Shown here in pieces: positions 2,195-64,000 of a DNA stretch of 64,000 nucleotides (position 1 is the first letter of the stretch; every line of letters starts with the position of its first letter). The translations under genes and the position numbers were made by a program. Below the pieces are notes generated by a model. That model did no database searches, was not told the origin of the DNA, and saw nothing but the letters and a program-made list of their open reading frames with translations. Source of the stretch: Mobula hypostoma (lineage: Eukaryota); NCBI RefSeq assembly GCF_963921235.1, contig NC_086108.1, positions 37,572,001 through 37,636,000 of the forward strand, in the 5' to 3' direction.

Positions 2195-4747
2195 AAAGAC
2201 CCTAAAGGGAGTTATATACAGGCCTTTGTACAGTAGCCAGCACATGGGATATAAATTAAAACTGGAAATAGAAAAGGCATGTAATAAGGGTAATGTTACG
2301 ATAGTGATGAAGGATATTAATATGCGTGTAGATTGGGAAAATCAGGTGGGGTTGGATCACAAGAGATGGAATTTGTAGAATGCCTTTGAGATGGCTTTTT
2401 AGAGCAGCTGGTGACTGAGCCCGCTAGCATAAAGGGAATCCTTGATTGGGTGTGGTGTAATTAACCAGATTTGATTAGGGAGCTTAAGGTAAATGAACCC
2501 TTGGAAGAAAGTGACCATAAAATAATAGAATGCACTCTGCTGTTTGATAGAGAGAAGATGAAGTCAGATGTATCAGTAAAGGGAATTACAGAGGCATGAG
2601 AGAAGAGTAGGCCAAAGTTGATTGGAAGGGAAAGCTAGCAGGAATGATGGTAGAACAGCAATGTTCTGCAGGCAATTCAGAAGGTGAAGAATAGATACAT
2701 CCCAAAGATGAAGACATATTCTAAAGGGAGGATGAGGCAACCATGCATAACAAGGGAAGTCAAAGACAGCATAAAAGCAAAAAAGAGGGTATATAATATA
2801 GCAAAATGTAGTGGTAATCTAGAGGATTGGGAAGCCTTTAAAAACTAACAGATGACAATTAAAAAGCATAAGGAGAGAAAAGATGAAACATGAAGGTAAG
2901 CTAGCCAACAATATCAAAGAGGATTTCAAAAAGTTTTTTCAGATATATAAATTGTAAAGGCGAAGCAACAATGGATATTGAATTGTTGGAAAATGACATG
3001 GAGAAGTAGCAATGGGGGAAAAAGAAATGGCAGATAAACTTTTAAAATATTTTGCATCAATCTTCACTATGGAAGACATGAGTAGTATGCCAGAAATTCA
3101 AGAGTATCAGGGGGCAGAAGTGAGTGTAATTGCTATTACCAAGGAGAAGGAGATTGGAAGTTGAAAGGTTTGAGGGTAAGTAAGTCACCTGGACCAGATG
3201 GACTACACCTCAGTGTTCTGAAAGAGGTAACTGAAGAGATTGTGGAGGCTCTAGTAATGATCTTTCAAGAATCACTGGATTCTGGAATAGTTCTTGAGGA
3301 ATGGAAATTTACAACTATCACTTCACTTTTGAAGAAGGGAGAGAGGCAGACAAAAGGAAATATTAAAGGAAAATTAGGTGACTTCAGTAGTTGGGAAGAT
3401 GTTGGATTCCATTATTAAAGATGAGGTTTCAGGGTACTTAAATGCACATGATAAAGTAGGCCAAAGTCAGAAGGTTTTCCTAAAGGGAAAATCTTGCCTG
3501 ACAAATCTGTTGGAATTCTTTGAAGAAATATCAGACAGGATAGACAAAGGAGAGTCAGAGGATATTGTTTACTTGGATTTTCAGAAGACTTTGACAAGGT
3601 GACGGGCATGAGGCTGTTTAATAGGATAAGAGCCCATGGTGTTACAGGAAAGATACTAGCACGGATAAAAGATTGGCTGACTGGCAGGAGGCAAAGAGTG
3701 GGATAAAAGGGGGTCTTTACTGGTTAACTGTCTGTGACTACTGTTGTTCTTTGATGGTTGGTATTGAGTTTGCTTCTTTTCATCTAATATATGTTAATGA
3801 TTTGAATGACAGAATTAACGGCTTTGTAGAAAAATTTTCAGATGATATGAATATAGGTTGAGGGGCAATTAGTGCTGAGAAAGCAGGGTGTCTGCAGTAG
3901 GTCTTGCACAGAAAAGGAGAATGGGCAGTGAAGTGGCAGATGGAATATAGTGTAAGGAACTGTATGCTCATGCATTTCCATTGAAGAAATGAAGGTGCAA
4001 ACTAATCTCTAAATGTGGAGCAAGTTCAAAAATCAGATGCACACAGTGGCTTAGTAGTCCTTGTGCAAGATTCCCTGCAGGTTGAGGAGGTGTTAAGGAA
4101 GGCAAATGCAATGTTAGTATTCATTTCGAGTGGACTAGAATACAAGAGCAAGAATGTGATGCTGAGGCTTTATAAGGCATTGGTCAGACCCCAGTTGGAG
4201 TATTGTGAGCAGTTTTGTACCACTTATCTAAGAAAAGATGCACTGGCATTGGAGAAGGTCTAGAAGAGGTTCATGAGAATGATTTTAAGTATGAAAGGAT
4301 TAATGTGTGATGAGCATTTGTTGGCTCTTGGCCTGTATTCACTAGAGTTTAGAAGAATGAGAGGGGATCTCATTGAAACCTATTGAATATTGAAAGGCCT
4401 ATACAGAGTGGATGTGGAGAGAATGTTTCCTATAGTGGGTGAGTGTAGGACAAGAGGACATAGCCTCAGAATTGAGGGTAGCCCATTCAGAACAAAGTTG
4501 AGAAGGAATTTCTTTAGCCAGAGGATAGTGAAACTGTGAAATTCATTCCCATGGACAGCAGTGGAGGCCAAGTCATTGAGTATATTTATAGTGGAGGTTG
4601 CTAGGTTCTGATTAGTTATGGCATGGATGGTTGCAGTGAGAATGCAGGAGAATGGGTTTAGAAGGATGATAAATCTGCAATGATGGAATGGCGAAGCAGA
4701 CTTGATGGGCCAAGTGTCCTAATTCTGAGCTATGTTTTATGGTTTTA
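2195..4747 (+). mobile_element. CR1-clade LINE ORF2 (endonuclease, RT) and 3' UTR, degenerate
   Basis: Fragments GVIYRP, KSPGPDGLH, FLKGKSCLTNLLEFFEE, YLDFQK, YVNDL..KFSDD, LYKALVRPQLEYC; many stops and frameshifts. Confidence 0.9.
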
Positions 4748-5742: not shown

Positions 5743-7390
5743 CAGTGCCTATAAAAAGTATTCATCCCTCCTTGGAAGTTTTCAAGCTTTATTGATTTTC
5801 AATATTAAATCACAGTGGATTTAATTTGGCTTTTTGTCACTGATCAACAGAAAAAGATACTTTCATGTCAAACTGAAAAAAAGATCACGACAAAGTGATC
5901 TAAATTACGTTTGTAATTACAAACATAAAACACAAAAAAATTGATTGCAATAAGTATTCACCTCCTTTAATATGACACACCAAATCATCAGTGGTACAGC
6001 CAATTGGTTTTAGAAGTCACATAATTAGTTAAATGAAGATCTGCTTTTGGAGACCTGTGTGCATCAAGGTGTTTCAATTGACTGTAGTAAAAATACACCT
6101 GTACCTGGAAGGTCCAGCTGCTGGTGAGTCAGTATCCTGGCAAAAACTACACCATGAAGACAAAAGAAAACTCCAAGCAACTCTGTGAAAAGGTTATTGA
6201 AAACACAAGTCAGGAGATGGATAAAAGAAAATTTCCCCAAGTCACTGAATATCCCTTGGGGTACAGTTAAGTCAGTCATCAAGAAATGGAAAGAATGTGG
6301 CACAGCTGTAAATCTGCCTCGAGCAGGCCATTCTCAAAAACTGAGTGATTGTGCAAGAAGGGGACTAGGGAGGGAGGCCACCAAGAGACCTATGACAGCT
6401 CTGAAGGAGTTACAAGCTTCAGTGTCTGAGATGGAAGAGACTGTGTACACAAAACCTCTTGCCTGGGTGCTTCACCGGTCGCAGCTTTATGGGAGAGTGG
6501 CAAAGAGAAAGCCACTGTTGAAAAAAAACTCACATGAAATCTTAGCTAGAGTTTGCCAGAAGGCATGTGGGAGACTCTGAAGTCAGTTGGAAGAAGGTTC
6601 TATGGTCTAACGAAACCAAAATTGAGCTTTTTGGTCATCAGACTAAATGCTATGTTTGGCATAAGCCAAACACTACACATCATCAAAAACACACCATTCC
6701 TACTGTGAAGCGTGGCGGTGGCTGCATCATATTGTGGGGATGCTTCACTGCAGCAGGCCCTGGAAGGCTTGTGAAGGGACAGGATAAAATGAATACAGCA
6801 AAACACAGGGAAATCCTGGAGGAAAACCTGATGCAGTCTGCAAGAGAACTGTGATTTGGGAGAAGATTTGCTTTCCAGCAAGACCATAACCCAAAGCTGA
6901 AAGCCAAAGCTACACAGGAATGGCTTATAAACAACAAAGTTAATGTCCAGGAGTGGCCAAGTCAGAGTCCAGACCTCAATCCAATTGAGAATTTGTGGCT
7001 GGACTTGAAAAGGGCTGTTCACTGACAATTCCTATGCAATCTGACAGAGCTTGAGCAGTTTTGTAAAGACGAATGGGGAAAAATTGCAGTGTCCAATTGC
7101 AAGCTGATGGAGACCTATCCACACAGACTCAAAGCTCCTATTGCTGCCAAAGGGACATTTATTAAATACTGACTTGAAGGGGGTGAATACTTATGCAATC
7201 AATTATTTTGTGTTTTATATCTGTAATTAATTTAGATCACTTTGTAGAGATCTGTTTTCACTTTGACACGAAGGAGTATTTTTCTGTTGATCGGTGTCAA
7301 AAAAGCCAAATTGAATCCACTATGATTCAATGTTGTCAAACAATAGAACATGAAAAATTCCAAGGGGGTAAATACTTTTTATAGGCACCG
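5743..7390 (+). mobile_element. Full-length Tc1 (IR/DR type, Passport-like) DNA transposon
   Basis: TA|CAGTGCCTATAAAAAGTATTCA ... AATACTTTTTATAGGCACCG; ~220-bp inverted repeats with inner direct repeats (AAGTATTCACC ~5952, GGTGAATACTT ~7182). Confidence 0.93.
6154..7172 (+). pseudogene. Tc1 DD34E transposase pseudogene
   Basis: MKTKE...NLPRAG...LYGRVAKRKPLL...WKKVLWSNETKIELFG...FQQDHNPK...[15 protein letters not shown]...KY*; frameshifts, an in-frame stop, and first catalytic D changed to N. Confidence 0.92.
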
Positions 7391-11949: not shown

Positions 11950-14545
11950 GAGAGAAATACCTGGTCAGGTGTTGAGAGACTGTGCAGCCCAGCAACAGAG
12001 GTCTTAATGGACTTCTTTAATATTTCTTTGGAACAATGCACTGTCCCTGCAGCCTTCAAAGGCAACCACTATCATTCCAATGTCCAAGAAAGCAAAGGTA
12101 ACAGGGCTAATGGATTACTGCCCAGTGGCACTGACTTCAACAATCATCAAGTGCTTTGAGCAGCTTTTAATGGATTGTATAAAATCCCCTCTTCCACCTA
12201 CATTGGACCCTTTCCAGTTTGCCTGCCACTCAAACCGGTCCACTAATGATGTCATATTGTCAGCCCTCCACTTTGACCTGTCCTTCCTAGAAATCAATGT
12301 CTTATACGCCAGGATGTTGTTCATCAATTTCACTCATATTTTAATACAGTCATTCCTCAGAGGCAGGTGGGTAAATTGTAATCACTGGGACTCAACACCT
12401 CTTTCTGTAACTAGATCTTGGACTTCTTGACAGAAAGACCCCCATTCAGTCTGAATTGTCAGCAACACCTCAAGCTCGATCACACTGATCACTGGTGCAC
12501 CCCAGGGCTGTGTGCTCAGCCCACTTCTGTTCACACTGCACTGCCAGATCCAGCTCAAACTGTACCATCAAGTTTGCTGATGATTATACGGTAGTTGGTC
12601 TCATCATTAGCAAAGCCTCTAAACCTCCTCTTTGTGTGATGACTCATCATTAACAACGATGAGTTGGCATACAATGAAGAGATATAGAAGCTTGTCAAAT
12701 GATCAAAGAACAACTACTTGAGGCTACGTCCACACTAGACCGGATAATTTTGAAAACGCCGGTTTCGAGTAAAATCAGCAGGCGTCCACACCGCGTTTTT
12801 CAAAATATCTCGGTCCACATTAGAATGGATACTTGGGCAAATCTCCTCCAACTGGGCATGCACGGGACACACAGAAAACAAGCGAAGAGGAAACGGTATA
12901 CTTGGTGTGTGTTTGCCCAGTTACAGACTAGAAAAACTTTAAAGGAATTGCTGTTGGCTCTCGCGCAGGAGGACTTAAAACTAAACAAACGAACACTGGA
13001 GCGTATGGAGGCAACCGACAGGGAGTTCACGGACAGTATGACCCGGCTGACGACGAACATTGAAAAACTGACTAATTCTGTTGCATTAATAAAACACCTT
13101 GTTAAATGGATAAAACATGTCTGCATCAGTGTTATCTTGTATTGCCATACAACATTACATTAGGCTGTTACACATCTATTGTCAGAGAAGTACTTGCATA
13201 AATAGGTAAACCACCTTCATACAAGCAAGGACAGAAAACAAGGCAAAGTGAGTATACATATTTATTCAGTAAGCTATGGGTCAAAGGATTTGGTGAGTAC
13301 ATTTCTAAATCTTCTGGCTTCAGTCTCGTTGCCGTCTGTTCTGAAATTGTTGGGTTGTGTGGGGGGTTGCGTTCAAGAAAACAACGAAATCCGCACTGTC
13401 GCAATCTGTTCTGGCACATCATGACAGCGTTTTAAAATAGTCAAAAAAGCTTACTTTACAATTTAACTCTCACAGCGTTCACACCGACTGCGCGTTATAA
13501 CAGCCGTCCGGCAGTGCTTGCGCAGTACCAAGCAGAAGCAGAATAAGCATTACTGTTGTGGTGTTGTCATGACAGTGTTTTTAAATATCTCTGTTTACCC
13601 TGTCTTCACTACAATGTGCAACAATCGTTTTCAAATTTACACACTCTAGAGAGTGTTTTAGAAAAGCTCCATTTTCGGGGGATGAAAACGATTTCAATGC
13701 GGAGAGAGGGTCAAAACAAAGAGAAAAAGCTTCATTTTCAAAATTATCTGGCATAGTGTGGACGTAGCCTGGGTCTCAATGTGGACTTCAGGAAGGCACA
13801 GGTCAACCACTCTCTATATTGCATATCGATAGCTGCCATGGAGGGAGTGAAGAGCACAAAGTTCCTTGGTGTACATGTAACAGACGATCTAACCTGGACC
13901 CACACCTTCTCACTAGTCAAAAAGACAGGGCAGCGCCTACATTTTCTGGGGAAATTGAGGCTTGCAAGTCTTCCCCACCCCCATTCTAGCAGCTTTCTAC
14001 AGGAGCACCATCTAGTGTCCTGTCTGGCTGCATCATTGTGTGGTATGGAAGCTGTAAGGCATCAGACATTATGACGCTACAGATTACAGCTGAGAGGATC
14101 ATGAGGGTTTCCCATTCCCCCTATTTGAGACATTTACTGGGAGCATTGTATATGAAGAGTCCAAAGCATTGTTGAGGATTTCTTACCACCTATCTCACAA
14201 CCTCTTTGACCCACCAGCAAAAGGAAGGAGGTAGAGAAGCATCAGGACTAGGACTACCAGATAGGGTAACAGCTTCTTCCCTCAGGTTGTGAGACTAATG
14301 AATACCCTCTCACCACTGAAGTCTCATCACTAGGTCAACGAGCTGTTTACTGTTTACCTGTGCTGTGCACTACATGCATTTTGAATTAGTTTTTATTAAT
14401 TTATTTACAGTAATATTTTGATTTATGTGCTGTGTGATACATGGTTTGTGGGTGTACCATGGTCTGGAGGAACCTTGCTTCATTGGGTTGTACGTATGTA
14501 CAGTCAGATAACAATAAAGTTGAACATGAGCTTGACTTGAACTTG
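11950..14545 (+). mobile_element. Rex1/Babar LINE RT and 3' UTR, split by a Harbinger insertion
   Basis: DYCPVALTSTIIKCFEQL, LDPFQFA, GAPQGCVLSP, KFADD, KFLGVHVTDDLTW; tail aataaagttgaac...ttgaacttgaa. Confidence 0.88.
12722..13769 (+). mobile_element. Non-autonomous PIF/Harbinger DNA transposon
   Basis: TIRs GGCTACGTCCACACTA / TAGTGTGGACGTAGCC; flanks TGA/TGG (3-bp TSD with one mismatch); same family as 55027-55748. Confidence 0.85.
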
Positions 14546-43150: not shown

Positions 43151-43365
43151 TTGAGAGACTCTGTAGATCTCTACTGTGTACCATACACAAGCTTCCCATT
43201 TATTTTCTTGCAGGCACACACAGGAAAATGAAAAAATACAAAAGAATCCATGAAATCCACAGAAAAGCCACATACTACAAAGACCAACTAATATCCAATG
43301 TGCAAAAGAGGACAAATTGCACAAATAATGAAAATAGTGAACAAGTATTACTGAAATACATTAGC

Positions 43366-43612
43366 TACAGAGACCCCAAAAGTGAGTTCACAGGCTGCAT
43401 ATTCCCCGAGAGTGAGTCCACGGGGTACAGAGACCCCGAGAGTGAGTCCACGGAGTACAGAGACCCCGAGAGTGAGTCCACGGGGTACAGAGACCCCGAG
43501 AGTGAGTCCACAGGGTACAGAGACCACGAGAGTGAGTCCACAGGGTACAGAGACCCCGAGAGTGAGTCCACAGGGTACGGAGACCCCGAGAGTGAGTCCA
43601 CAGGGTACAGAG
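43366..43612. repeat. 30-bp minisatellite, ~8 copies, inside a Rex1 3' UTR fragment
   Basis: Unit TACAGAGACCCCGAGAGTGAGTCCAC(G/A)GGG. Confidence 0.95.
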
Positions 43613-43869
43613 GCAGTTCAGTTCTGAGATGAGTGAAGCCGGTCCAGGAGTCCAATGGCTGCAAGGCAACCACTGTCCCCAATCCTGGCTGTTGAAGTTT
43701 TAATTAGTTTTCGCACAATAATGTGTGTGCCTAGTGTTAACTAGAATCTGACACAAGTTGATAGCAGACAAGCAGGATTTTCTTGCTGAAGAACAAACTC
43801 TCCTACAGCATTCCAGGTGTGTATTGGAGTTGGTGGAAATGTGGATTGGATAGGCTCACCTCTTTGTGG

Positions 43870-53915: not shown

Positions 53916-55026
53916 CCTGAATACTGTTTTCCATCATTTCTCATTGTTCACTAATTATAATTGTACCCACATTGAAGATTCAGGTAATAAGTTTTGGAAT
54001 TCCTGTCCAAAATCTCTCTTTCTAGCTTTAAGTTGCTTCTTAAAACCTACCTCTCTGATTAACAACTGGTCACATATTTTCTTAAGTGGATTCATGTTAA
54101 ATTGTGTTTAATGAAACTTGTAAAACATGTCTGGAAGATAACTAACATTTAAAAGCTAAATAGATGCAGGTTGTTGTGTAATGTGCCAGAATAGATACCA
54201 AAGCTAGCTGGCTTTACTTTGAGTAAACACACTCCACTCACTTATACTTTAGATATTTAGAACTTTCTCTTAAAGTATTGGGTACCAAGGATTTGTTTAG
54301 TCCTTTTCAAAACTAAGAGTTCAGAGCTGTAACAATAGGTGCTTGTATTTATCAAGCTGGATTTGATATTTTACACATCAGGTCAACAAACTGTGCATAT
54401 TGGAACTGCCATCCTGGAGGCAAGGAAATTTGATAGAGTTGATAGACTGGATCTCCTGCTTCGCACTGAGCTGTCTGGATCTTCTTTCAAAGTAAAAACA
54501 AAATACGATGGAAACAATTAAGAGGCAAGACCCAGGTAATGTAGTTGCAATACCCAGTGCTTAAGAATACCTTTCACAAGTGATGTGGCCTGTCTGGGAT
54601 GATGGGCTGTCAAGGCCATCAGTGGGGTTGATGGTCTATGACTCACCTAGACACTCACACTCAAAACCCAATAAAATGAAACTATTAAAAATACAATTAT
54701 CAAAAAATGATTAATTGTTCAAAAATTGAAGGAACTAAAAAACACTAATTTAAAGCAAAAACATTTAAATTTGTGATGGATATTCACTTCTTGATTATTT
54801 GCTGATCTCACTTTCTAAACACAGTAGCTACCACTTGTAAGATCACAAACAGATGTAAGTAAACTTCCAACTATTATTGATTTGTATAGTTTATGGTTGT
54901 AAAATGGGAGTCAGTCTTCAGTTCATAAAATGTAAATGAAAGCAGTAGTCAGCCTCAGGTTAAAATACAGATTTAAAAACAAGCTCTATTTATAGCACAG
55001 ATGCTCTGCTCTTCTGTGAGAAATAA

Positions 55027-55748
55027 GGCTACGTCCACACTAGACCGGATAAATTGGTAACCGAAGCTTTTTCTCTTTGTTTTGACCCTCTTTCCATGCT
55101 GAAATGGTGTTTCCCTCCCTCGAAAATGGAGCTTTCCTAAAACACTCTCCAGTGTGTTTAAATCTGAAAACGCCAGTCGGGCGTTGTAGTGTGTACAGGG
55201 TAACCGGAGGTTTTAAAAAAACCTCTCGCCCCTTTCATCGGTGAAGAGACTACGCTATAGGAAATGTTTCCAGGGTGACCCCTCTGTGGGAGTGGGGAGG
55301 ATGTTGGTGGGGCCACCTGGGGGCTCTGTGTGTCCGTATGTGCAGCTATTGTAGTGGCTATGAGGCTGGTATTGTGTCAGTTTTACAATGTTTGTCATCA
55401 GCCGGGTCACACTGTTCGTGAACTCCTTGTCGGTTGCCTCCATATGCTCCAGTATTTGTTTTTTCAGTTTTAAGTCCTCCTGCGCGAGAGCCAACAGCAG
55501 TCTGTTATTTGGCAATTTCCTTTTAAGTTTTTCTGGTCTGTAACTGGACAAACACGCACCAAGTATACCGTTTCCTCTTTGCTTATTTTCTGTAGATGTG
55601 TCCTGCACATGCCCAGTAGGAGGCGATTTGCCCAAATACCCGTTTTAATGTGGATGGAGGTATTTTCAAAAACGCCTGGTGTGGACACCTATTGTTTTTA
55701 CGTGAATCCGGCGTTTTCAAAATTATCCAGCCTAGTGTGGATGTAGCC
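55027..55748 (-). mobile_element. Non-autonomous PIF/Harbinger DNA transposon
   Basis: TAA|GGCTACGTCCACACTAG ... CTAGTGTGGATGTAGCC|TAA: TIRs and a TAA TSD. Confidence 0.9.
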
Positions 55749-56085
55749 TAAGATGCAGTTCCTAACAGCTGATTTACCGCAGCTCAAGGATACAGTATAA
55801 GACAATGGGCTGTTTAATTTGGCTTGTTTCAAATGGATAAGTGGACTATAAGTTGCTCAGTTCAAGGAAGCTTGCAGACCAGATGGAACCAAATACTTAG
55901 CATATCAAATAACTGATCTATTAATGTTGGGAGTTTTAGGTGCTCAGAAAAGTTAGTTTTACAGTAGTAGCTGAGATCTATTGTATGTATCCAAGATGCT
56001 TTTAGACCATTTGTGTATATCGGAGGAAATATCATACATATGTGAAGTCATCCAAATAGAAGAAAGGGTACAGAATTGTAGAGAG

Positions 56086-56392
56086 TGTCAGGCCTACCCA
56101 GGAAGGTGCCTCGTAGTCACGACCTAGCTAACAAGAGTCACTTGCCACTCATTTCCAACACATCACCTGCAGCCAAATTAAATCCCGCTTTCATTCATAA
56201 CCCTTGTTCACTTATGTCAACCAGCCAGCCTCAACTTCTTGGTTCTAGCCTTCAGTTACCTTGTAATGTTAAGTATCAGTTCTCTTTTGTTTTGTGGTCC
56301 CTTGTGGCTTGATATTTTATTATTAAAGAGATTGCTCATTGCTAATTATTTCCACTGCTCTGTGTTTCAAACTTCCTCCACATTTCCTAACA
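56086..56392 (+). mobile_element. Solo LTR (307 bp), probably from an LTR retrotransposon
   Basis: GAGAG|TGTCAGG ... CCTAACA|GAGAG: TG..CA termini, 7-bp imperfect inverted repeat, 5-bp TSD, ATTAAA at ~56323. Confidence 0.8.
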
Positions 56393-57062
56393 GAGAGAAG
56401 TCCAGGCATATTAGGAACATCTAGAACCATGAGGTGAATTAGAATCCATTCCTCTGGTTTTGATTTCTGCAATGAAGGATTTGTTTGTCTGCAGCTTGTG
56501 GGTGTGCTTTATAGTTTATAGGAATTGTACCCGTGTTTAGGCAATCCTTTATCTTTTGTGCTTGTGAAATGGTTTGTTATTTAGAAATAGTTTGTAATTT
56601 GGAAATGTTTAAGATGGAAATACTCAATTTTAAATGTGTTTTAAGAATGTTTTGTGGATTTAAAGGCGTGTCACTGAAAATAAACAAACTATTTTTAAAC
56701 TACTTTGTTGGCTGGAAGAATCTCCCCCTTGGTAGGGATAGGGGACCAACTGCTCGAATAGTGGGTATTGTCAGCTGAACTCACCATGGAGAAAAACCAG
56801 AGAAGTGAACTAGTCTTTGAAGATTAGGTAGTTACAGTATAATCTCCCTTCAGTTAGAACACTTGTGAGTATTTAGATCCAATAAGTTTAAGGTCTTTGT
56901 TTGAGTTTCGAACTTTGCGATCAGCAAAGTCAATACCATCACAGTAGGCACTTGTTGGTTAGGTTATACCAACAGTATTATTTTAGAAATAATTATTATT
57001 TGTCAGTAGTCCAATTTGGAGAGCTCTCAACCAGTGCTATGCTCCCCACCTAATACTATAAA

Positions 57063-58242
57063 ATGGTCAACATCCTGTTTTCCAGCAGTTGCTCAGGCAA
57101 ATATTAGTCGATATTATAAAAGTGTTAATAATAAAGCAGAAATATGATATAATACCCAGCTCTCAAATTGAATGTGAATATTTTTTACTTCAAGTCCGAG
57201 ACTGGAATGATAAAGGGATAAAACATAGAGTAGGATTTAGATTAGACAAACCATGCCCCACCGTATCACTTTCTGGAATCGGATCATCACAAATTGTACC
57301 AGTTTCAAACAATGTTGCAATAATTCGTGCCTGGAGACAACAAATTGGTCCTTTTTAGCAAAAAACCAAGCACCTGCTTGGAGACTATATGCTTGTGTGA
57401 TAGAAGCTGGTGATCAATATCTTAATCATGATGCATAGGGATACCATGTATTCCTTCCAGGCACACGAGGTAGTGCCCACGCCATTAAATCCTAGAGGTA
57501 CGAAAAAAGCTACAGAACAGATGCTTGGGAACATGCACTAGAATTAAGGATTGACTATAGCCAGTAAAAGAAGAAGATGGGGACAGGTTCCTGTATAGGG
57601 AGCTACTGCAGTTTCCCCAGGACAAATTTCTCATCCAGGTTTTGGAACTTTGACTATTCAAAGTTTGCAGGCAGAATGTACTGCACTTCCAGGTGATGCT
57701 GAAGGAAATCTGAAGTGGCTACATCAGAATGCTGGGAGGTTACAGGCCTTCTAGTCCAGTCATACTCCCCAACATACTCAGCAATTCTTATTAATGTTAT
57801 TTTCCATAGCCTTGGTACCCACCTCCACATGAATGTGGAAATCCGTGCCAGATACAGACATGGATTTATAAACAAAAAAATGGTGGGATGAATGCAGAGG
57901 CCTTAGAACTGTGTTGAGTAGAGAGTCAAAAGCCAGGGCTTAATAACATCTTAGAGGATGGGAGAAAAATTGGCAGGAGCAGACTGGGACCTAGTTCACT
58001 CTCTAGTGTTACCCCTTCATCCTGGTGATACCCTCTACATCATGTAGGGAATGGCCCTCAATCAACACCCTATACATGAACGATTTCAGGTTTTTGAAGA
58101 GACCCTGCGCACCCGCATGGTGGGAGCAGGTTTACAGCTCATTTCCACACAACGGCAACAAAATGCCAACATACAGTTCTCCCCTTTCCCTTTAAAGAAG
58201 GGGTTCCAACCTTTTTTTAATGCCCTGGACCCCTATCATTAA
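57063..58242 (+). pseudogene. gag: Foamy-type Gag remnant (capsid/central domain)
   Basis: From 57653: TIQSLQAECTALPGDAEGNLKWLHQNAGRLQAF*SSHTP aligns ungapped to PFV [39 protein letters not shown]. From 57958: MGEKLAGADWDLVHSLVLPLHPGD vs PFV LGMMLSGQNYQLVSGIIRGYLPGQ. PFV sequences recalled, not searched. Confidence 0.72.
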
Positions 58243-58444
58243 CCAACCCCCAAGACTGGAACCCTTGCTTTAAAGGGTCAGTAAACAAGTTCTCAAACCA
58301 ACCCTGTTCCTTGCGTCGATCACATTCGCAACATTCTCCTACACCAGTCCCTTAGCAGGAAAGACTTAATCAACAAACCAAAACAGTTCACTGGAGAATG
58401 CCTGCCTTAGGAAGAGATATTCACCCACAAACAAGATGGCTACT

Positions 58445-61400
58445 ATTGGCTGATTTAATTCAACCCAACCCCATTCTCCTGCATTCTCTGCACAACCTTT
58501 GATGTCCTGATTAATCAAGAACCTATCAATCTCCACCTTAAATATACCCGATGACTTGGCCAGTACAACCAATTATGACAAAGAATTCCACAGATTCACC
58601 ACCTTCTCTCTAAAGACTCTTTTCCTCATCTCTGTTCTAAATAGATAACCCTCAACTTTGAGTCTATTTCCTCTGGTCTTTAACACCCCTACTGTAAGAA
58701 ACATCCTGCCCACACCCACTCTATCCACACCCTTTAATATTTGATAGGTTTCAATGAGATCCCCCCCATTCTTCTAAACTCTAGACAGACCCAGAGCCAA
58801 ATGCTCTACAAAATTTAACCCTTTCATTCCTGGGATCATTCTCGTGAACTTCCTCTGGACTCTCTCTGATGTCAGCACATCCTTTCTTAAATAAGGGGCC
58901 TAAAACAGCTCACAATACTCCCAAGTGTGGTCTGACCAATGCCTTACAAAGCCTCAGCATTACATTCTTGCTTCTGTATTTTTGTCCTCTCAAAATGAAT
59001 GCTAACATTGCATTTGTCGTCTTTACCACTAACTCAACCTGCAAGTTAACCTTTAGGAAATCCTGCATGAGGACTCACAAGTTCCTTTGTACCTCTGTAT
59101 TTTGAATTTTCTCTCTGTTTATAAAATAGTCTATGCCTTTTTTCATTCTACCAAAGTGCATGACCATACACTGTCTAAGTCCTTCTGCAGACACCCTGCT
59201 TCCTCAACATTACATACCTTTCCACCTATCGTTGTATCATCCACAAACCTGGACACAAAGGCAAAAATTCCTTCATCCAAATCATTGACATAAAACACGA
59301 AAAGCAGCAGTCCCAACACCAACCCCTGTGGTACACCACTAGTTACCGGTAGCCACTCAGAATATTTTTCCCAAGCTCAAGAGTTTTCCTGTTTTCTTAA
59401 GCTAGACAGATAGATAACTCCAGCACTGTTGAAGGTGGTTTTATTATTCACCAACACATTACAGTACGCAAGGGGCTGTTGTAAAAGGACAGTATTTCTC
59501 AGTGCTCCAGTGAAAAGCAGATTCAAATATTGATTGAAATTCCTTCGACTTCTAACGTGTTTCTAACTACTAAATGATTATGCACATATGATATAAAATG
59601 GCCACCCTGATGATGGAAGCTAAATGCTTAACAATGCAATAATGAGTAATCATCAGCAGCAGTGAAGCTCTAGTAATTAGAGATATGAAAAAAAAACACA
59701 TCAGATAATACATAACAGGCTCATTTATTCCCACTCTTTGCCTCCTGCCAATCTTCAATCCATTTTAGTACCTTTCCCAAAATACCATGGGCTCTTATTT
59801 TGTTAAGCACTCTCATCTGGCGCACCTCAGGGGTGTGGGCTTAGCCCACTGCTCTATTCTCTGTATACACATGATCGTATGGCTAGGCATAGCTCGAATA
59901 CCATCTACAAATTTGCTGACGATACAACAATTGTTGGTAGAATCTCAGGTGGTGACGAGAGGGCATACAGGAGAGAGATATGCGAACTAGTGGAGTGGTG
60001 CTGCAGCAACAACTTGGCACTCAGCGTCAGTAAGACGAAAGAGCTGATTATGGACTTCAGGAAGGGTAAGATGAAGGAACACAAACCAATCCTCATAGAG
60101 GTATCAGAAGTGGAGAGAGTGAGCAGCTTCAAGTTCCTGGGTGTCAAGATCTCTGAGAATCTAACCTGGTCCCAATACATTGATGTAATCATAAAGAAGT
60201 CAAGACATCAGCTATTCTTTATTTGGAGTTTGAAGCGATTTGGCATGTCAGCAAATACACTCAAAAACTTCTATAGTTGCACCGTGCAGAGTATTCTGAC
60301 AGGCTACATCACTGTCTGGTATGGAGGGGCTACTGAACAGGACCGAAAGAAGCTGCAGAAGTTTGTAAATCTAGTCAGCTCCATCTTGGGCACTAGCCTC
60401 CAAGGTACCCAGGACATCTTTAGGGAGCGGTGTCTCAGAAAGGCAGCAACCATTATTAAAGACCTTCAGCACCCCAGGGCATGCCCTTTTCTCACTGTTA
60501 CCATCAGGTAGGAAATACAGAAGCCTGAAGGCACACGCTCAGCGATTCAGGAACAGCTTCTTCCCCTCTGCCATCCGATTCCTAAATGGACTTTGAAGCT
60601 TTGGCCACTACTTCACTTTTTAAAAAAAATACAGTATTTCTGTTTTTGCACATTTTTTAATAAGCTATTCAATATATGTAATTGATTATTTATTATGTTT
60701 TTTTTCTCTCTCTGCTAGATTATGTATTGCATTGAACTGCTGCTGCTAAGTTAACAAATTTCACGTCACATGCCAGTGATAATAAACCTGATTCTGATTC
60801 CGATCTGTGGCACCTTATCAAAGGCCTTCTGAGAATCCAAATAAACAACCTCCATTGACTCTCCATTGCTTATCCTGTCTGTTATTTCGTCAAAGAATTC
60901 CAACAGATTTGTCAGGCAAGATTTCCGCTTTAGAAAACCATGCTGACTTTGACCTATTTTATCACATGCCTCCAAGTACCCTGAAATCTTATCCTCCGTA
61001 ATAGACTCCAACATCTTTCCAACCACTGAAGTCAGACTAACTGGCCTGCAATTTCCTTTCTTCGGTCTCCCTCCCTTCTTAAAGATTGGAGTAACATTTG
61101 CAATTTTCCAGGCTTCAGATTCTTGAAAGATCATTACTAATACCTTCACAATCTCTTCAGTTACCTCTTTCAATACCCTGGACTGTAGTCCATGTGACTT
61201 ATCTACAGTACTTTCAGACTTTTCAGCTACCCAAGCACCTTTTCCTTAGTAATAGCAGCTCCATGCACTTTTGTCCCAGCAATTCTGCATTTCTGACATT
61301 CTGCTAGTGTCTTTCACAGTGAAGACCTACACAAAACATTTATTATGTTCCTCGGTCATTTCATTGTCCTCCATTACTACCTCTCCCGTGACATTTTCCA

Positions 61401-61860
61401 GCAGTCCGATATCCACTCTCATCTCTGTTACTCCTTATATCTCTGAAAAATCTTCTTGTATCCTCTTTTAGATAAATTATGAATTTACCTTCATATTTCG
61501 TCTTTTCTTTCTTTATGGTTTTTTTAGTTGCCTCAGTTGATTTTTTTAAAGCTTCTCAATCCTCAACATTTGCACAAATATTTGCTATATTTTATACTCC
61601 CTCTTTCTTTTCATGATGTCTTTGACTTCCCTTGTCAGCCAGCTACCCACAAGGATTCGACATCTTCTGATCCTATGTCACCTCTAGGGATTTGATTTCA
61701 GTCTTACCAATAGAGCCACCCCACCCGCTCTGCCATGCTGCCTGACCTTTAAATACAATGCATCTCCTTTGCTGTTAAGCTCCCAACTATGATCTTCTTT
61801 CAACCACGACATCATACCTGCCAATTTCTAATTGCTCTACAATATCATCTACCTTATTTC
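58445..61860 (-). mobile_element. CR1 LINE inserted into the provirus, itself interrupted
   Basis: ORF 60766-61173 (WKIANVTPIFKKG...RPVSLTS...SCLTNLLEFF...KAFDKVP); 3' end at ~58445. Confidence 0.9.
59817..60801 (+). mobile_element. 5'-truncated Rex1/Babar LINE nested in the CR1
   Basis: ORF 59879-60511 (YKFADDTTIVG...KFLGVKISENLTW); tail aataaacctgattctgattc. Confidence 0.92.
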
Positions 61861-62480
61861 AGTAGCACCAAGTACATGTGGCAAATTGATTATTTTGGCC
61901 AGTTTCTGGCATCCCAAGGCAACTTGCCTTATCTGAAAAATAATAGATATATTCTTGTGATAATTGGTCTTTATACGGGATATACATAGTTAATCTCCAT
62001 GACTTCTTGTAGCGAGATCACAACCTTCACAACACTTCAAAGCTCCATATTCCCATATGCTAGCACCCCTGTCCAGGTGACCCAGTGACATGCTGACCAG
62101 GGCTCTTCCTTCAGTGGTAAAGGCATTCAAGCCATGTGTAAGATGAAAAGGCATACAAGTAGAGTACAACACTCCACTCCAACTGCAATCAAGTGGCATG
62201 ATGGGGCAAAGCAATCAAGAGATTATATAAGGCCTGACAAAACTACTCTACTCCAGAAGCAAAGTTACCCCTGAGGTGCAACCGTCAGTAAACAAAGTGC
62301 CAATTCCGTAACATATAATGTTCACCTAAATCTAGCCCTGATTGCTAACTCAGGCCAACCATTGCCTACATCCAATATAATTCTCCTCAGGGAATTTCCA
62401 TCCCAGATTACCCTTGTTATCAATGATAGGACTGTGGTAATTGACAGCAGGAGGAGAAACAAGTCCATGCAAAACTATAA
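61861..62480 (+). pseudogene. pol: Foamy-type integrase remnant (catalytic core and C-terminal domain)
   Basis: WQIDYFGQF..SQG...YILVIIGLYTGYT*L; HADQGSSF; after a frameshift GIQVEYNTP...QSSGMMGQSNQEII*GLTKLL; CTD PSQITLVINDRTVVID. D (62095) to the E position (62204, now GGG) keeps the D-35-E spacing. Confidence 0.88.
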
Positions 62481-62654
62481 TCCAAAGATAACATCAAACC
62501 TGCCCCAGCAGGATTTTGGGTCCACCACGGAACACTTACATCTCAACGGAAAGGGGGTGGGGCGAGGTGTATTGAAATGATAAAACACATGTTTAAATCT
62601 GAAAAGCAATGAAAGAATTCCTGCAAGCCAGGCAGCATCTCTAGGAAGAGGTAC

Positions 62655-62690
62655 AGTTGACGTTTCAGGCCGAGACCCTTCGTCAGGACT
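62655..62690 (-). ncRNA. Minimal hammerhead ribozyme, antisense copy
   Basis: Minus strand AGTC-CTGACGA-A-GGGTCTCGGCCT-GAAA-CGTC^AACT; one stem I mismatch. Confidence 0.7.
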
Positions 62691-63198
62691 AACTGAAGGA
62701 AGAGTTAGTAAGAGATTTGAAAGTGGGAGGGGGAGGGGGAGATCCAAAATGATAGGAGAAGACAGGAGGGGGAGGGATGGAGACAAGAGCTGGACAGGTG
62801 ATAGGCAAAAGGGATATGAGAGGATCATGGGACAGGAGGCCCAGGGGGAAGGAAAAGGGGGAGGGGGGGGAAACCCAGAGGATAGACAAGGGGTATAGTC
62901 AGAGGGACAGAGGATGAAAAAGGAGAGAGAGAGAAAGAATGTGTGTATATAAATAAATAACGGATGGGGTACGAGGGGGAGGTGGGGTATTAGCGGAAGT
63001 TAGAGAAGTCAATGTTCATGCCATCAGGTTGGAGGCTACCCAGACGGAATATAAGGTGTTGTTCCTCCAACCTGAGTGTGGCTTCATCTTTACAGTAGAG
63101 GAGGCCATGGATAGACATATCAGAATGGGAATGGGATGTGGAATTAAACTGCCCTCCCCCTCCCACTTTCAAATCTCTTACTAGCTCTTCCTTCAGTT

Positions 63199-63234
63199 AG
63201 TCCTGATGAAGGGTCTCGGCCCGAAACGTCGACT
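63199..63234 (+). ncRNA. Minimal type I hammerhead ribozyme (Penelope pLTR type)
   Basis: AGTC-CTGATGA-A-GGGTCTCGGCCC-GAAA-CGTC^GACT: stem I AGTC/GACT, intact core, stem II GGG/CCC, palindromic ACGT stem III, GUC cleavage triplet. Confidence 0.85.
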
Positions 63235-63874
63235 GTACCTCTTCCTAGCGATGCTGCCTGGCCTGCTGCGTTCACCAACAACTTTGATGTGTGTTGCTTG
63301 AATTTGCAGCATCTGCAGAATTCCTGGTGTTTGCGAAAGAATTCCTGTTCACATACATTGCCCACAGATAATACATTCAAAATGGGCAGTTTTCTGAGCA
63401 AGACAGACTCAACCTCCAGGAAGCAATGTTGCTCTTACTATCAATATTTTTGCTTATAATGATGTTGTTTAGTGCTGACTTACTTACCATTTGCTCTTTC
63501 ACAAAGTCACATTTACTATGGAAATTGTCTCATCTGACACAGATAACCCAAAAACTTAATGACTCAGAAATTATTAAATTCAGGGGATCCGTGAGCATGA
63601 TGATTCTAATTTAAATATCACTAAATGGCCCTTATCTCTTGGTCATTTGTGAACGAATATTACTGGATCCTTAGTCCTTGCCTCTGGCAAAGTGATTGTC
63701 CACTTCATTCACTCTGAACACATTGCAGAGAAAGGAACGTAGATGCATGGGAAGGCAAAGAATCACTTATGGAAATGATTAATAACATCCCAACAAAACT
63801 GAAAGATTCCAGCACACAAATTCTGGTACTGAGATTCCAGCCCTGACCCAGTATAGCTATACCGATCAGTTATA

Positions 63875-64000
63875 CTAGATAGGGTGTTATGTAATAAACC
63901 AGAGGCGATTAGGGAGCTTAAGGTAAAGGAACCCTTAGGAGCCAGTGATCACAATATGATCGAGTTCAACTTGAAATTTGATAGGGAGGAAGTAAAATCT
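63875..64000 (+). mobile_element. CR1 endonuclease fragment, running off the window end
   Basis: ILDRVLCNKPEAIRELKVKEPLGASDHNMIEF (SDH motif). Confidence 0.85.

Follow-up and report, generated by a model that had tools for sequence, protein, structure and literature searches.

The window, a 64,000-nt stretch of the Mobula hypostoma genome, carries a decayed provirus that begins at position 54772 and ends ~3.4 kb outside the window. Paired LTRs, a 4-bp duplication, and remnants of a spumavirus Gag and of env are present. Its parts are given below, with positions past the window end in the coordinates of locus L050.

54768..54771, no strand: left 4-bp target-site duplication, repeated directly after the 3' LTR at L050 4358-4361
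54772..56943, + strand: 5' LTR, in pieces (~54772-55027, 55758-56097, and 56423-56943) separated by inserted repeats
56944..56961, + strand: primer-binding site (PBS) position, decayed, with 7/18 matches to the tRNA-Lys(CTT) 3' end
56962..58432, + strand: leader and gag remnant, with a Pfam Gag_FV_central match at ~57907-58116 (E 2.3e-4, below cut-off)
58447..61860, no strand: LINE-type fragments replacing the gag end, protease, RT, RNase H, and integrase N-terminal domain
61865..62305, + strand: integrase catalytic core, with D 61888, D 62095, and Gly 62204, and stops at 61987, 62086, and 62228
62306..62516, + strand: remnant of the integrase linker and SH3-type C-terminal domain, with copy-specific gaps and a solid match at about 62407-62484
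62517..62622, + strand: integrase end and start of the env region, colinear with sister copies
62623..63350, no strand: younger repeat within env, 92-95% identical to its other copies
63353..63822, + strand: env 5' remnant, with DNA homology to copies that match Pfam Foamy_virus_ENV
63823..64000, no strand: further insertion; the provirus resumes past the window end

Beyond the window lie more env pieces (L050 3095-3276 and 3457-4047) and a truncated 3' LTR (L050 4055-4357). In uninterrupted copies the LTR is ~1.13 kb long with TG...CA ends. The window copy has no RT; everything between 58432 and 61865 is missing under the LINE fragments, whose class was judged from RT-like ORFs and self-matches and which we take to be CR1/L2. 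The env piece in the window itself gave no Pfam env match. Other repeats were seen in the window. One with a coiled-coil-like ORF sits in the 5' LTR (55026-55749) and has another copy at 12721-13770 (83% identity); our guess is that it is of DNA-transposon origin. Positions 6158-7031 hold fragments that, going by their motifs, are presumably of Tc1/mariner-type transposase, and 43355-43629 is a tandem array with a 30-nt unit, open in several frames.

The segment at 61861-62480 had been read from the letters as a foamy-type integrase with a lost catalytic Glu, and a sequence check found every listed motif at its claimed position. WQIDY is present, with the first catalytic Asp codon at 61888-61890. 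YTGYT is followed by an in-frame TAG stop (61987-61989), HADQGSSF holds the second Asp (62095-62097), GLTKLL is present, and PSQITLVINDRTVVID starts at 62398. The Gly codon (GGG, 62204-62206) of QSSGMMGQSN aligns to the PFV E221 column, as had been read, giving the window a D/D/G triad. The proposed frameshift is real, and the frame of the core breaks between about 62140 and 62147. The damage was nonetheless understated: there are two more in-frame stops (62086-62088 and 62228-62230) and three gaps of ~37, ~135, and ~42 nt against sister copies (10 copies compared), and the window copy has no HHCC N-terminal domain, since family homology begins at 61865 with other repeats upstream.

Profile and structure searches agree on the identity of the segment. 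The first half of the window integrase matches Pfam rve with E 1.1e-5 and 26 bits, under the curated cut-off (32.6). In a frameshift-aware comparison with a foamy Pol profile, the window stretch scores 182 against a maximum of 47 in 20 shuffles. PFV integrase was the best PDB match of the integrase, with weak E values for single-sequence searches of two core pieces (0.075 and 0.0016); a PDB search with the C-terminal piece and one RT frame gave nothing relevant. The C-terminal piece (62398-62484) scores 53 versus a maximum of 37 in 100 shuffles, is identical to PFV at 13/29 residues, and is not in frame with the end of the core. By itself it has no Pfam SH3_11 match; 2/3 sister copies do (E about 3e-4, below cut-off). 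The claimed C-terminal domain is thus real as a piece, and its first three residues cross a gap: 'PSQ' sits left of a ~19-nt gap versus copy L013, and the other two of the three aligned copies have no clean block there. Because of this gap, the PS match to PFV is probably a coincidence, and the solid part is probably limited to ITLVINDRTVVID.

The segment lacks the features of an active retroviral integrase, having a D/D/G triad, three stops, a frame break, and no N-terminal domain. It is a pseudogenised integrase core of a decayed provirus. The lost Glu, which had been singled out as informative, turned out to be specific to individual copies. The Glu column was examined in 34 copies; 32 have a residue there, and in 19/32 it is Glu. 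The others have V, Q, G, D, K, M, or R, spread over all forms of the family (described below). Pairwise distances by codon position are 0.26/0.24/0.28 in 33 copies, with L026 omitted as a duplicate. Glu loss is neutral decay after insertion and does not point to domestication or modification of the enzyme.

Searched at the DNA level, the host's own genome (3.48 Gb) yielded 73 matches among 40 scored candidates, with 68-77% identity for the main ones. The layout was read from 20 copies with 10 kb upstream, and downstream from the same 20 plus the window copy. The common layout is LTR-PBS(Lys)-gag-pol(PR, RT, RNase H, IN)-env-LTR. LTR pairs were found in seven copies, and three of the four copies having both outer ends, the window copy included, show a 4-bp duplication (the exception is L011/L031). 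The PBS matches the 3' end of host tRNA-Lys(CTT) at 9-14/18 positions in 21 copies, compared to 7/18 in the window. The spumavirus Gag central domain (Gag_FV_central, PF20672) is over cut-off at three loci, and Foamy_virus_ENV (PF03408) is over cut-off in L035 (E 1.3e-8, SU part). The SU part of env is colinear with foamy gp130 (E 0.0016), the TM half has no match to foamy Env, and PF03408 is absent from L048 and from the window frames. A weak RNase H match lies between RT and IN. The env region is ~2.1 kb in compared copies, with an estimated ~1.4 kb of common sequence between the presumed env end and the LTR. Two other candidates, a Ginger-type transposon bounded by TIRs and an element lacking env, were dropped once env and 3' LTRs appeared downstream. 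Two genome-wide profile searches returned nothing and are uninformative: the one for Foamy_virus_ENV had a stricter filter, and the one for Spuma_A9PTase (PF03539) dealt with heavily decayed copies and matched no control.

An LTR query gave 3,446 first-look candidates versus 200-360 for internal queries, all unscored, and the best identities among scored LTR and internal matches are 78-79%. This suggests hundreds of proviruses and many solo LTRs, with no young copy among the scored matches. Several individual loci stood out. L056 (G000:C45:65524600-65534599) is a second RT-bearing copy, located ~8 kb upstream of L022. In L098 a mere ~430 nt separate the integrase from the 3' LTR, so env is missing. 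L012 and L026 (G000:C21, 43.98 and 44.75 Mb, opposite strands) have a near-identical integrase part, which reflects either gene conversion or an inverted segmental duplication. The genome also has at least 150 rve matches (150/150 scored), mostly in long open frames, of which three fetched group with Gypsy, and at least 150 MLVIN_C matches (150/150 scored) from class I ERVs, several repeated on small contigs.

A family profile built from 13 stop-masked pieces scores PFV integrase at 63 bits, HIV-1 at 37, and a deltaretroviral integrase at 33. In a profile search of 1.84 billion proteins, the best single-stretch match was a foamy-like protein, P0020 (89.6 bits). The same search gave feline foamy virus 56.3 bits, level with many Gypsy-type integrases (53-65 bits), and its two top rows were multi-integrase Gypsy proteins. 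Scores alone are therefore not decisive, and trees were used. In the IN tree, seven family rows join P0020 (100/96) and then the foamy viruses (98/85). The frames of the sister copies were picked with a foamy profile containing P0020, a possible pull that is escaped by a tree of the window sequence alone, in which frames were read without any reference; here the window groups with foamy viruses (97/95). In the RT tree, six sister copies group with foamy viruses and P0020 at 100/100 over 250 columns. From the first IN tree 16 references were removed for size or long branches, with five more removed from the window-alone tree, and P0005 and P0317 were left out of the RT tree for short RT coverage.

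These trees bear on two other origins. One is that the segment comes from a Gypsy/Ty3 LTR-retrotransposon integrase or a Ginger/Gin-type transposase, as the level bit scores and the top two search rows would allow. Neither IN nor RT groups with Ty3/Gypsy (Metaviridae), an AU test of the window piece rejects the Gypsy placement narrowly (p 0.042), the best single-stretch match is foamy-like, and the family has LTRs, spumavirus Gag, the weak RNase H between RT and IN, and a foamy Env match. We consider this origin hardly credible. The other would make it a lokiretrovirus or class I/II ERV, for which the top named match in a word-indexed search, the Latimeria protein P0004, can be cited. Loki-like proteins and class I sequences (proteins with MLVIN_C, and loci from the host's own genome) fall on other supported branches in both IN and RT trees, where P0004, P0005, P0069, and P0182 were labelled Loki-like from domain layout and not by a database. 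The AU test again rejects narrowly (class I plus Loki-like, p 0.043). Lokiretrovirus RT is described as sister to all other retroviruses and its Env as like Mononegavirales F, in the accessible part of PMC7947760; the RT studied here nests with foamy viruses and its Env SU matches the foamy profile, as compared with uncurated lokiretrovirus references. Gag also matches a foamy profile, and PFV integrase outscores HIV-1 and deltaretroviral integrase by the margins given above. This origin is very improbable, if slightly less so than the Gypsy one.

The refuting outcome that the sequence-only reading had named, best matches and tree placement among Gypsy or class I/II integrases, was not seen, and its foamy-type identification is upheld. 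Sequence comparison supports a foamy-like (spumaretroviral) ERV family that is neither Gypsy nor class I. Its view that this segment is the best one for phylogeny did not hold, as the segment offers 119 stop-ridden columns and a branch of 1.29, against 100/100 over 250 columns for sister RT. RT is a better marker than IN, and RT-bearing sister copies are better than the window segment. The integrase phylogeny of Wang and Han separates fish from tetrapod foamy viruses, and the text accessible to us urges caution for RH and IN (PMC7947760). No class II reference, and no teleost, coelacanth, or shark foamy-like reference, is in any of our trees, and no foamy-like protein of the latter three groups was among the proteins retrieved.

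Two database proteins are of separate interest. P0020 (Logan contig of 10,956 nt) is a stop-free protein of 1,687 aa whose single frame runs through a Gag-like N-terminus, protease, RT, RNase H, IN, and SH3_11, and it is 34% identical to feline foamy Pol. If real, it represents a foamy-like virus in which Gag and Pol are fused, and it may be young or exogenous. It had no relative among viral contigs, and its N-terminus gave only Atlas leads below 0.9. P0311 (Logan contig of 10,295 nt) is a 1,156-aa Pol with an A9 protease, and its RNase H-IN part shares 50% identity with feline foamy Pol. It is sister to mammalian foamy viruses in the IN tree and not resolved among them in the RT tree.

Copies of the family occur in three forms. 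Form A has no pol deletion (L097, L109, L064, L059, and L061/62). Form B comprises 11 copies without ~1.5 kb from the leader through gag; its junction could be measured in 10 of them, and 25 of the 40 scored matches span it. Form C comprises nine copies that keep gag and lack ~640 nt covering most of the protease and the RT N-terminus, as well as ~205 nt carrying the RT catalytic motifs (palm). The RT-palm junction is at an identical position in 30/30 loci fetched, six of which are re-hits. It has a ~9-nt overlap and is out of frame in 23/30. The counts give no abundances for A, B, and C, since every query is biased towards its own form and scoring was limited to 40 candidates. In L097 (about 3826-3852, oriented), the B deletion stops, and the first C deletion starts, at points no more than ~25 nt apart near the protease active site, so that the stretches missing from B and from C are almost complementary. 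L030 (G000:C12:128603700-128613699) has the B gag deletion and C-type states at 4/5 pol diagnostic columns and is possibly a recombinant between two defective forms.

Elements without RT catalytic motifs or Gag cannot copy themselves. With the same junctions recurring in copies that each have their own flanks, B and C would have spread in trans, and the junction overlaps point to template switching, an established retroviral behaviour. The same pattern might instead come from duplication of host DNA, or from gene conversion, once the copies had integrated. Duplication is seen in at least one pair, L012 and L026, which have the integrase part in common (100/99); L073/L074 may be another. A DNA tree of 38 rows, excluding rows under 600 nt, is star-like with tips of about 0.12-0.16 and internal branches near zero, and neither B nor C is a clade in it (seven changes each), as host duplication would permit. 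Against this, the 30 junction loci are scattered over many contigs, the flanks of different copies are unlike one another, the C copies L016 and L018 each have their own, different 4-bp duplication, and deleted copies are as divergent from each other as from undeleted ones. We regard duplication by the host as improbable and helper-driven reverse transcription as the better account of the shared deletions.

The window copy lacks the region bearing the C deletions, and its form was read from diagnostic columns. C is set apart from A and B by 6-7 separating columns versus at most 2 in permutations. The window has the C state at 10/12 diagnostic columns (null mean 1.25, maximum 5) and at 5/6 under a stricter threshold, an assignment made from 12 weak columns of which two disagree. 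On these columns it most likely belongs to the RT-less form C and was probably non-autonomous at integration. It could also descend from the undeleted, integration-competent form A within the same foamy-like family and have decayed later. Like form A it retains gag, it has the A/B state at the two disagreeing columns, and it has no supported sister in the DNA tree. The 10 C-state columns speak against this, as does the position of the window outside the one short branch (98/93) of that tree, which holds all five A rows and 8/11 B rows. Descent from form A is unlikely on balance, though it is a more serious contender than the other alternatives weighed here.

LTR pairs in seven copies have K2P distances of 0.18-0.28 (median 0.23), and the window pair has 0.27 over 267 sites, all from local alignments with CpG included. 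These correspond to ~50 Myr at a mammalian rate of 2.2e-9, ~230 Myr at 0.5e-9, the rate assumed for catshark in the accessible text of PMC10699275, and >500 Myr at 2.2e-10, the rate assumed in that of PMC4422223. For the age of the family, only 'old' is safe. Contigs from other sequencing runs bear on age without a rate. Those of runs X5 and X9 recover the host/LTR junction at 54772 and cross it, showing 7 and 14 differences in ~440-460 nt. For the X5, X9, X10, and X11 contigs of the integrase region, divergence is ~2-7%, far below that of paralogues, and three of them span the LINE/integrase junction. Because junction-spanning contigs occur in differently labelled organisms, both the insertion and the large deletion predate their split. 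Judging by tip length, the insertion would have about four times the age of the deepest split among them. No RNA data set was listed as carrying the sequence, which says nothing about its expression.

Taken together, the segment is very probably a pseudogenised integrase in a fixed, neutrally decaying foamy-like provirus, with B and C as helper-spread forms and the window copy probably derived from C. The family integrated by a DDE integrase, as the 4-bp duplications show, and amplified in one old burst. B and C probably arose when reverse transcription switched templates at short repeats, keeping LTRs, PBS, and presumably packaging signals, and would have been copied and integrated by enzymes acting in trans, from form A or a circulating virus. 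The window copy would then descend from C, with the middle of its pol later giving way to LINE insertions and the remainder, catalytic Glu included, decaying after integration.

The segment itself is ordinary pseudogene decay, and its importance lies in the family. As far as the accessible part of PMC5512871 describes it, the co-divergence of foamy viruses with their hosts is least clear in cartilaginous fishes, for which the present family provides gag, pol, and env together with LTRs. An insertion shared across species permits a rate-free minimum age, and identical deletions at dozens of independent insertions make helper-dependent spread of foamy-like ERVs, formerly a hypothesis, countable. 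A wider history can be proposed tentatively, at somewhat less than even odds. A spumaretrovirus with mammalian-type Gag and Env would have entered the germ line of a ray ancestor >100 Myr ago and, in a single burst, left proviruses by the hundred and LTRs by the thousand, a large share of them from helper-carried, gag-less or RT-less genomes resembling defective-interfering ones; it would be closer to the tetrapod/coelacanth clade than teleost elements are. If true, a chondrichthyan foamy lineage would be datable via orthologous insertions and would hold direct fossil evidence of foamy trans-complementation.

Strict Spumaretrovirinae have a family A9 aspartic protease, tas/bel between env and the 3' LTR, and an internal promoter; their Pol comes from its own spliced mRNA, and reverse transcription precedes release. 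The family resembles mammalian foamy viruses (PFV/SFV, FFV, BFV, and EFV) in RT and IN grouping, the Gag central domain, Env SU, the SH3-type IN C-terminus, and long LTRs. It differs by its separate long branch, sister to the tetrapod clade in the present trees, by an env of ~2.1 kb versus a 982-position Pfam model, and by being purely endogenous and decayed. P0020, the best single-stretch match, is sister to the family in the IN tree (100/96) and shares RT, RNase H, IN, and SH3_11. It differs in having ~25-40% identity to the family, a sister relation that is weak in RT (83/67), and an N-terminal 540 aa unlike the family's gag. A tRNA-Lys PBS is another shared trait, reported for most mammalian foamy viruses in the accessible part of PMC5512871.

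Foamy-like ERVs are also described from other chondrichthyan hosts, and comparison with them is by published description as far as it was accessible. For CmiFLERV of the elephant shark only pol was detected, and the relation of shark elements is given as unclear (PMC5512871). ERV-Spuma.0-Sca of the catshark has no Gag conserved domain and an oldest LTR date of ~36 Myr, and the catshark elements grouped with cichlid and killifish elements; the accessible text describes a screen of 12 chondrichthyans, including Amblyraja, Leucoraja, and Pristis, and has no Mobula entry (PMC10699275). Unlike these, the present family has Gag and Env that match mammalian-foamy profiles and LTR pairs at 0.18-0.28. 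Judged from its listings, the literature searched, which covered few subscription journals and no broad ERV surveys, has no report of a foamy-like ERV from rays and none of shared-deletion foamy lineages. In fish foamy-like ERVs, trans complementation is only hypothesised from copy number and age in what was accessible of PMC5512871. The closest parallel is in macaque SERV-K/MER11 and HERV-K type 1, where many proviruses carry identical internal deletions that the accessible part of PMC11379458 explains by co-packaging with competent genomes. Those elements are betaretrovirus-like and young, whereas the present family, alike in having many proviruses with common deletions, is foamy-like and old.
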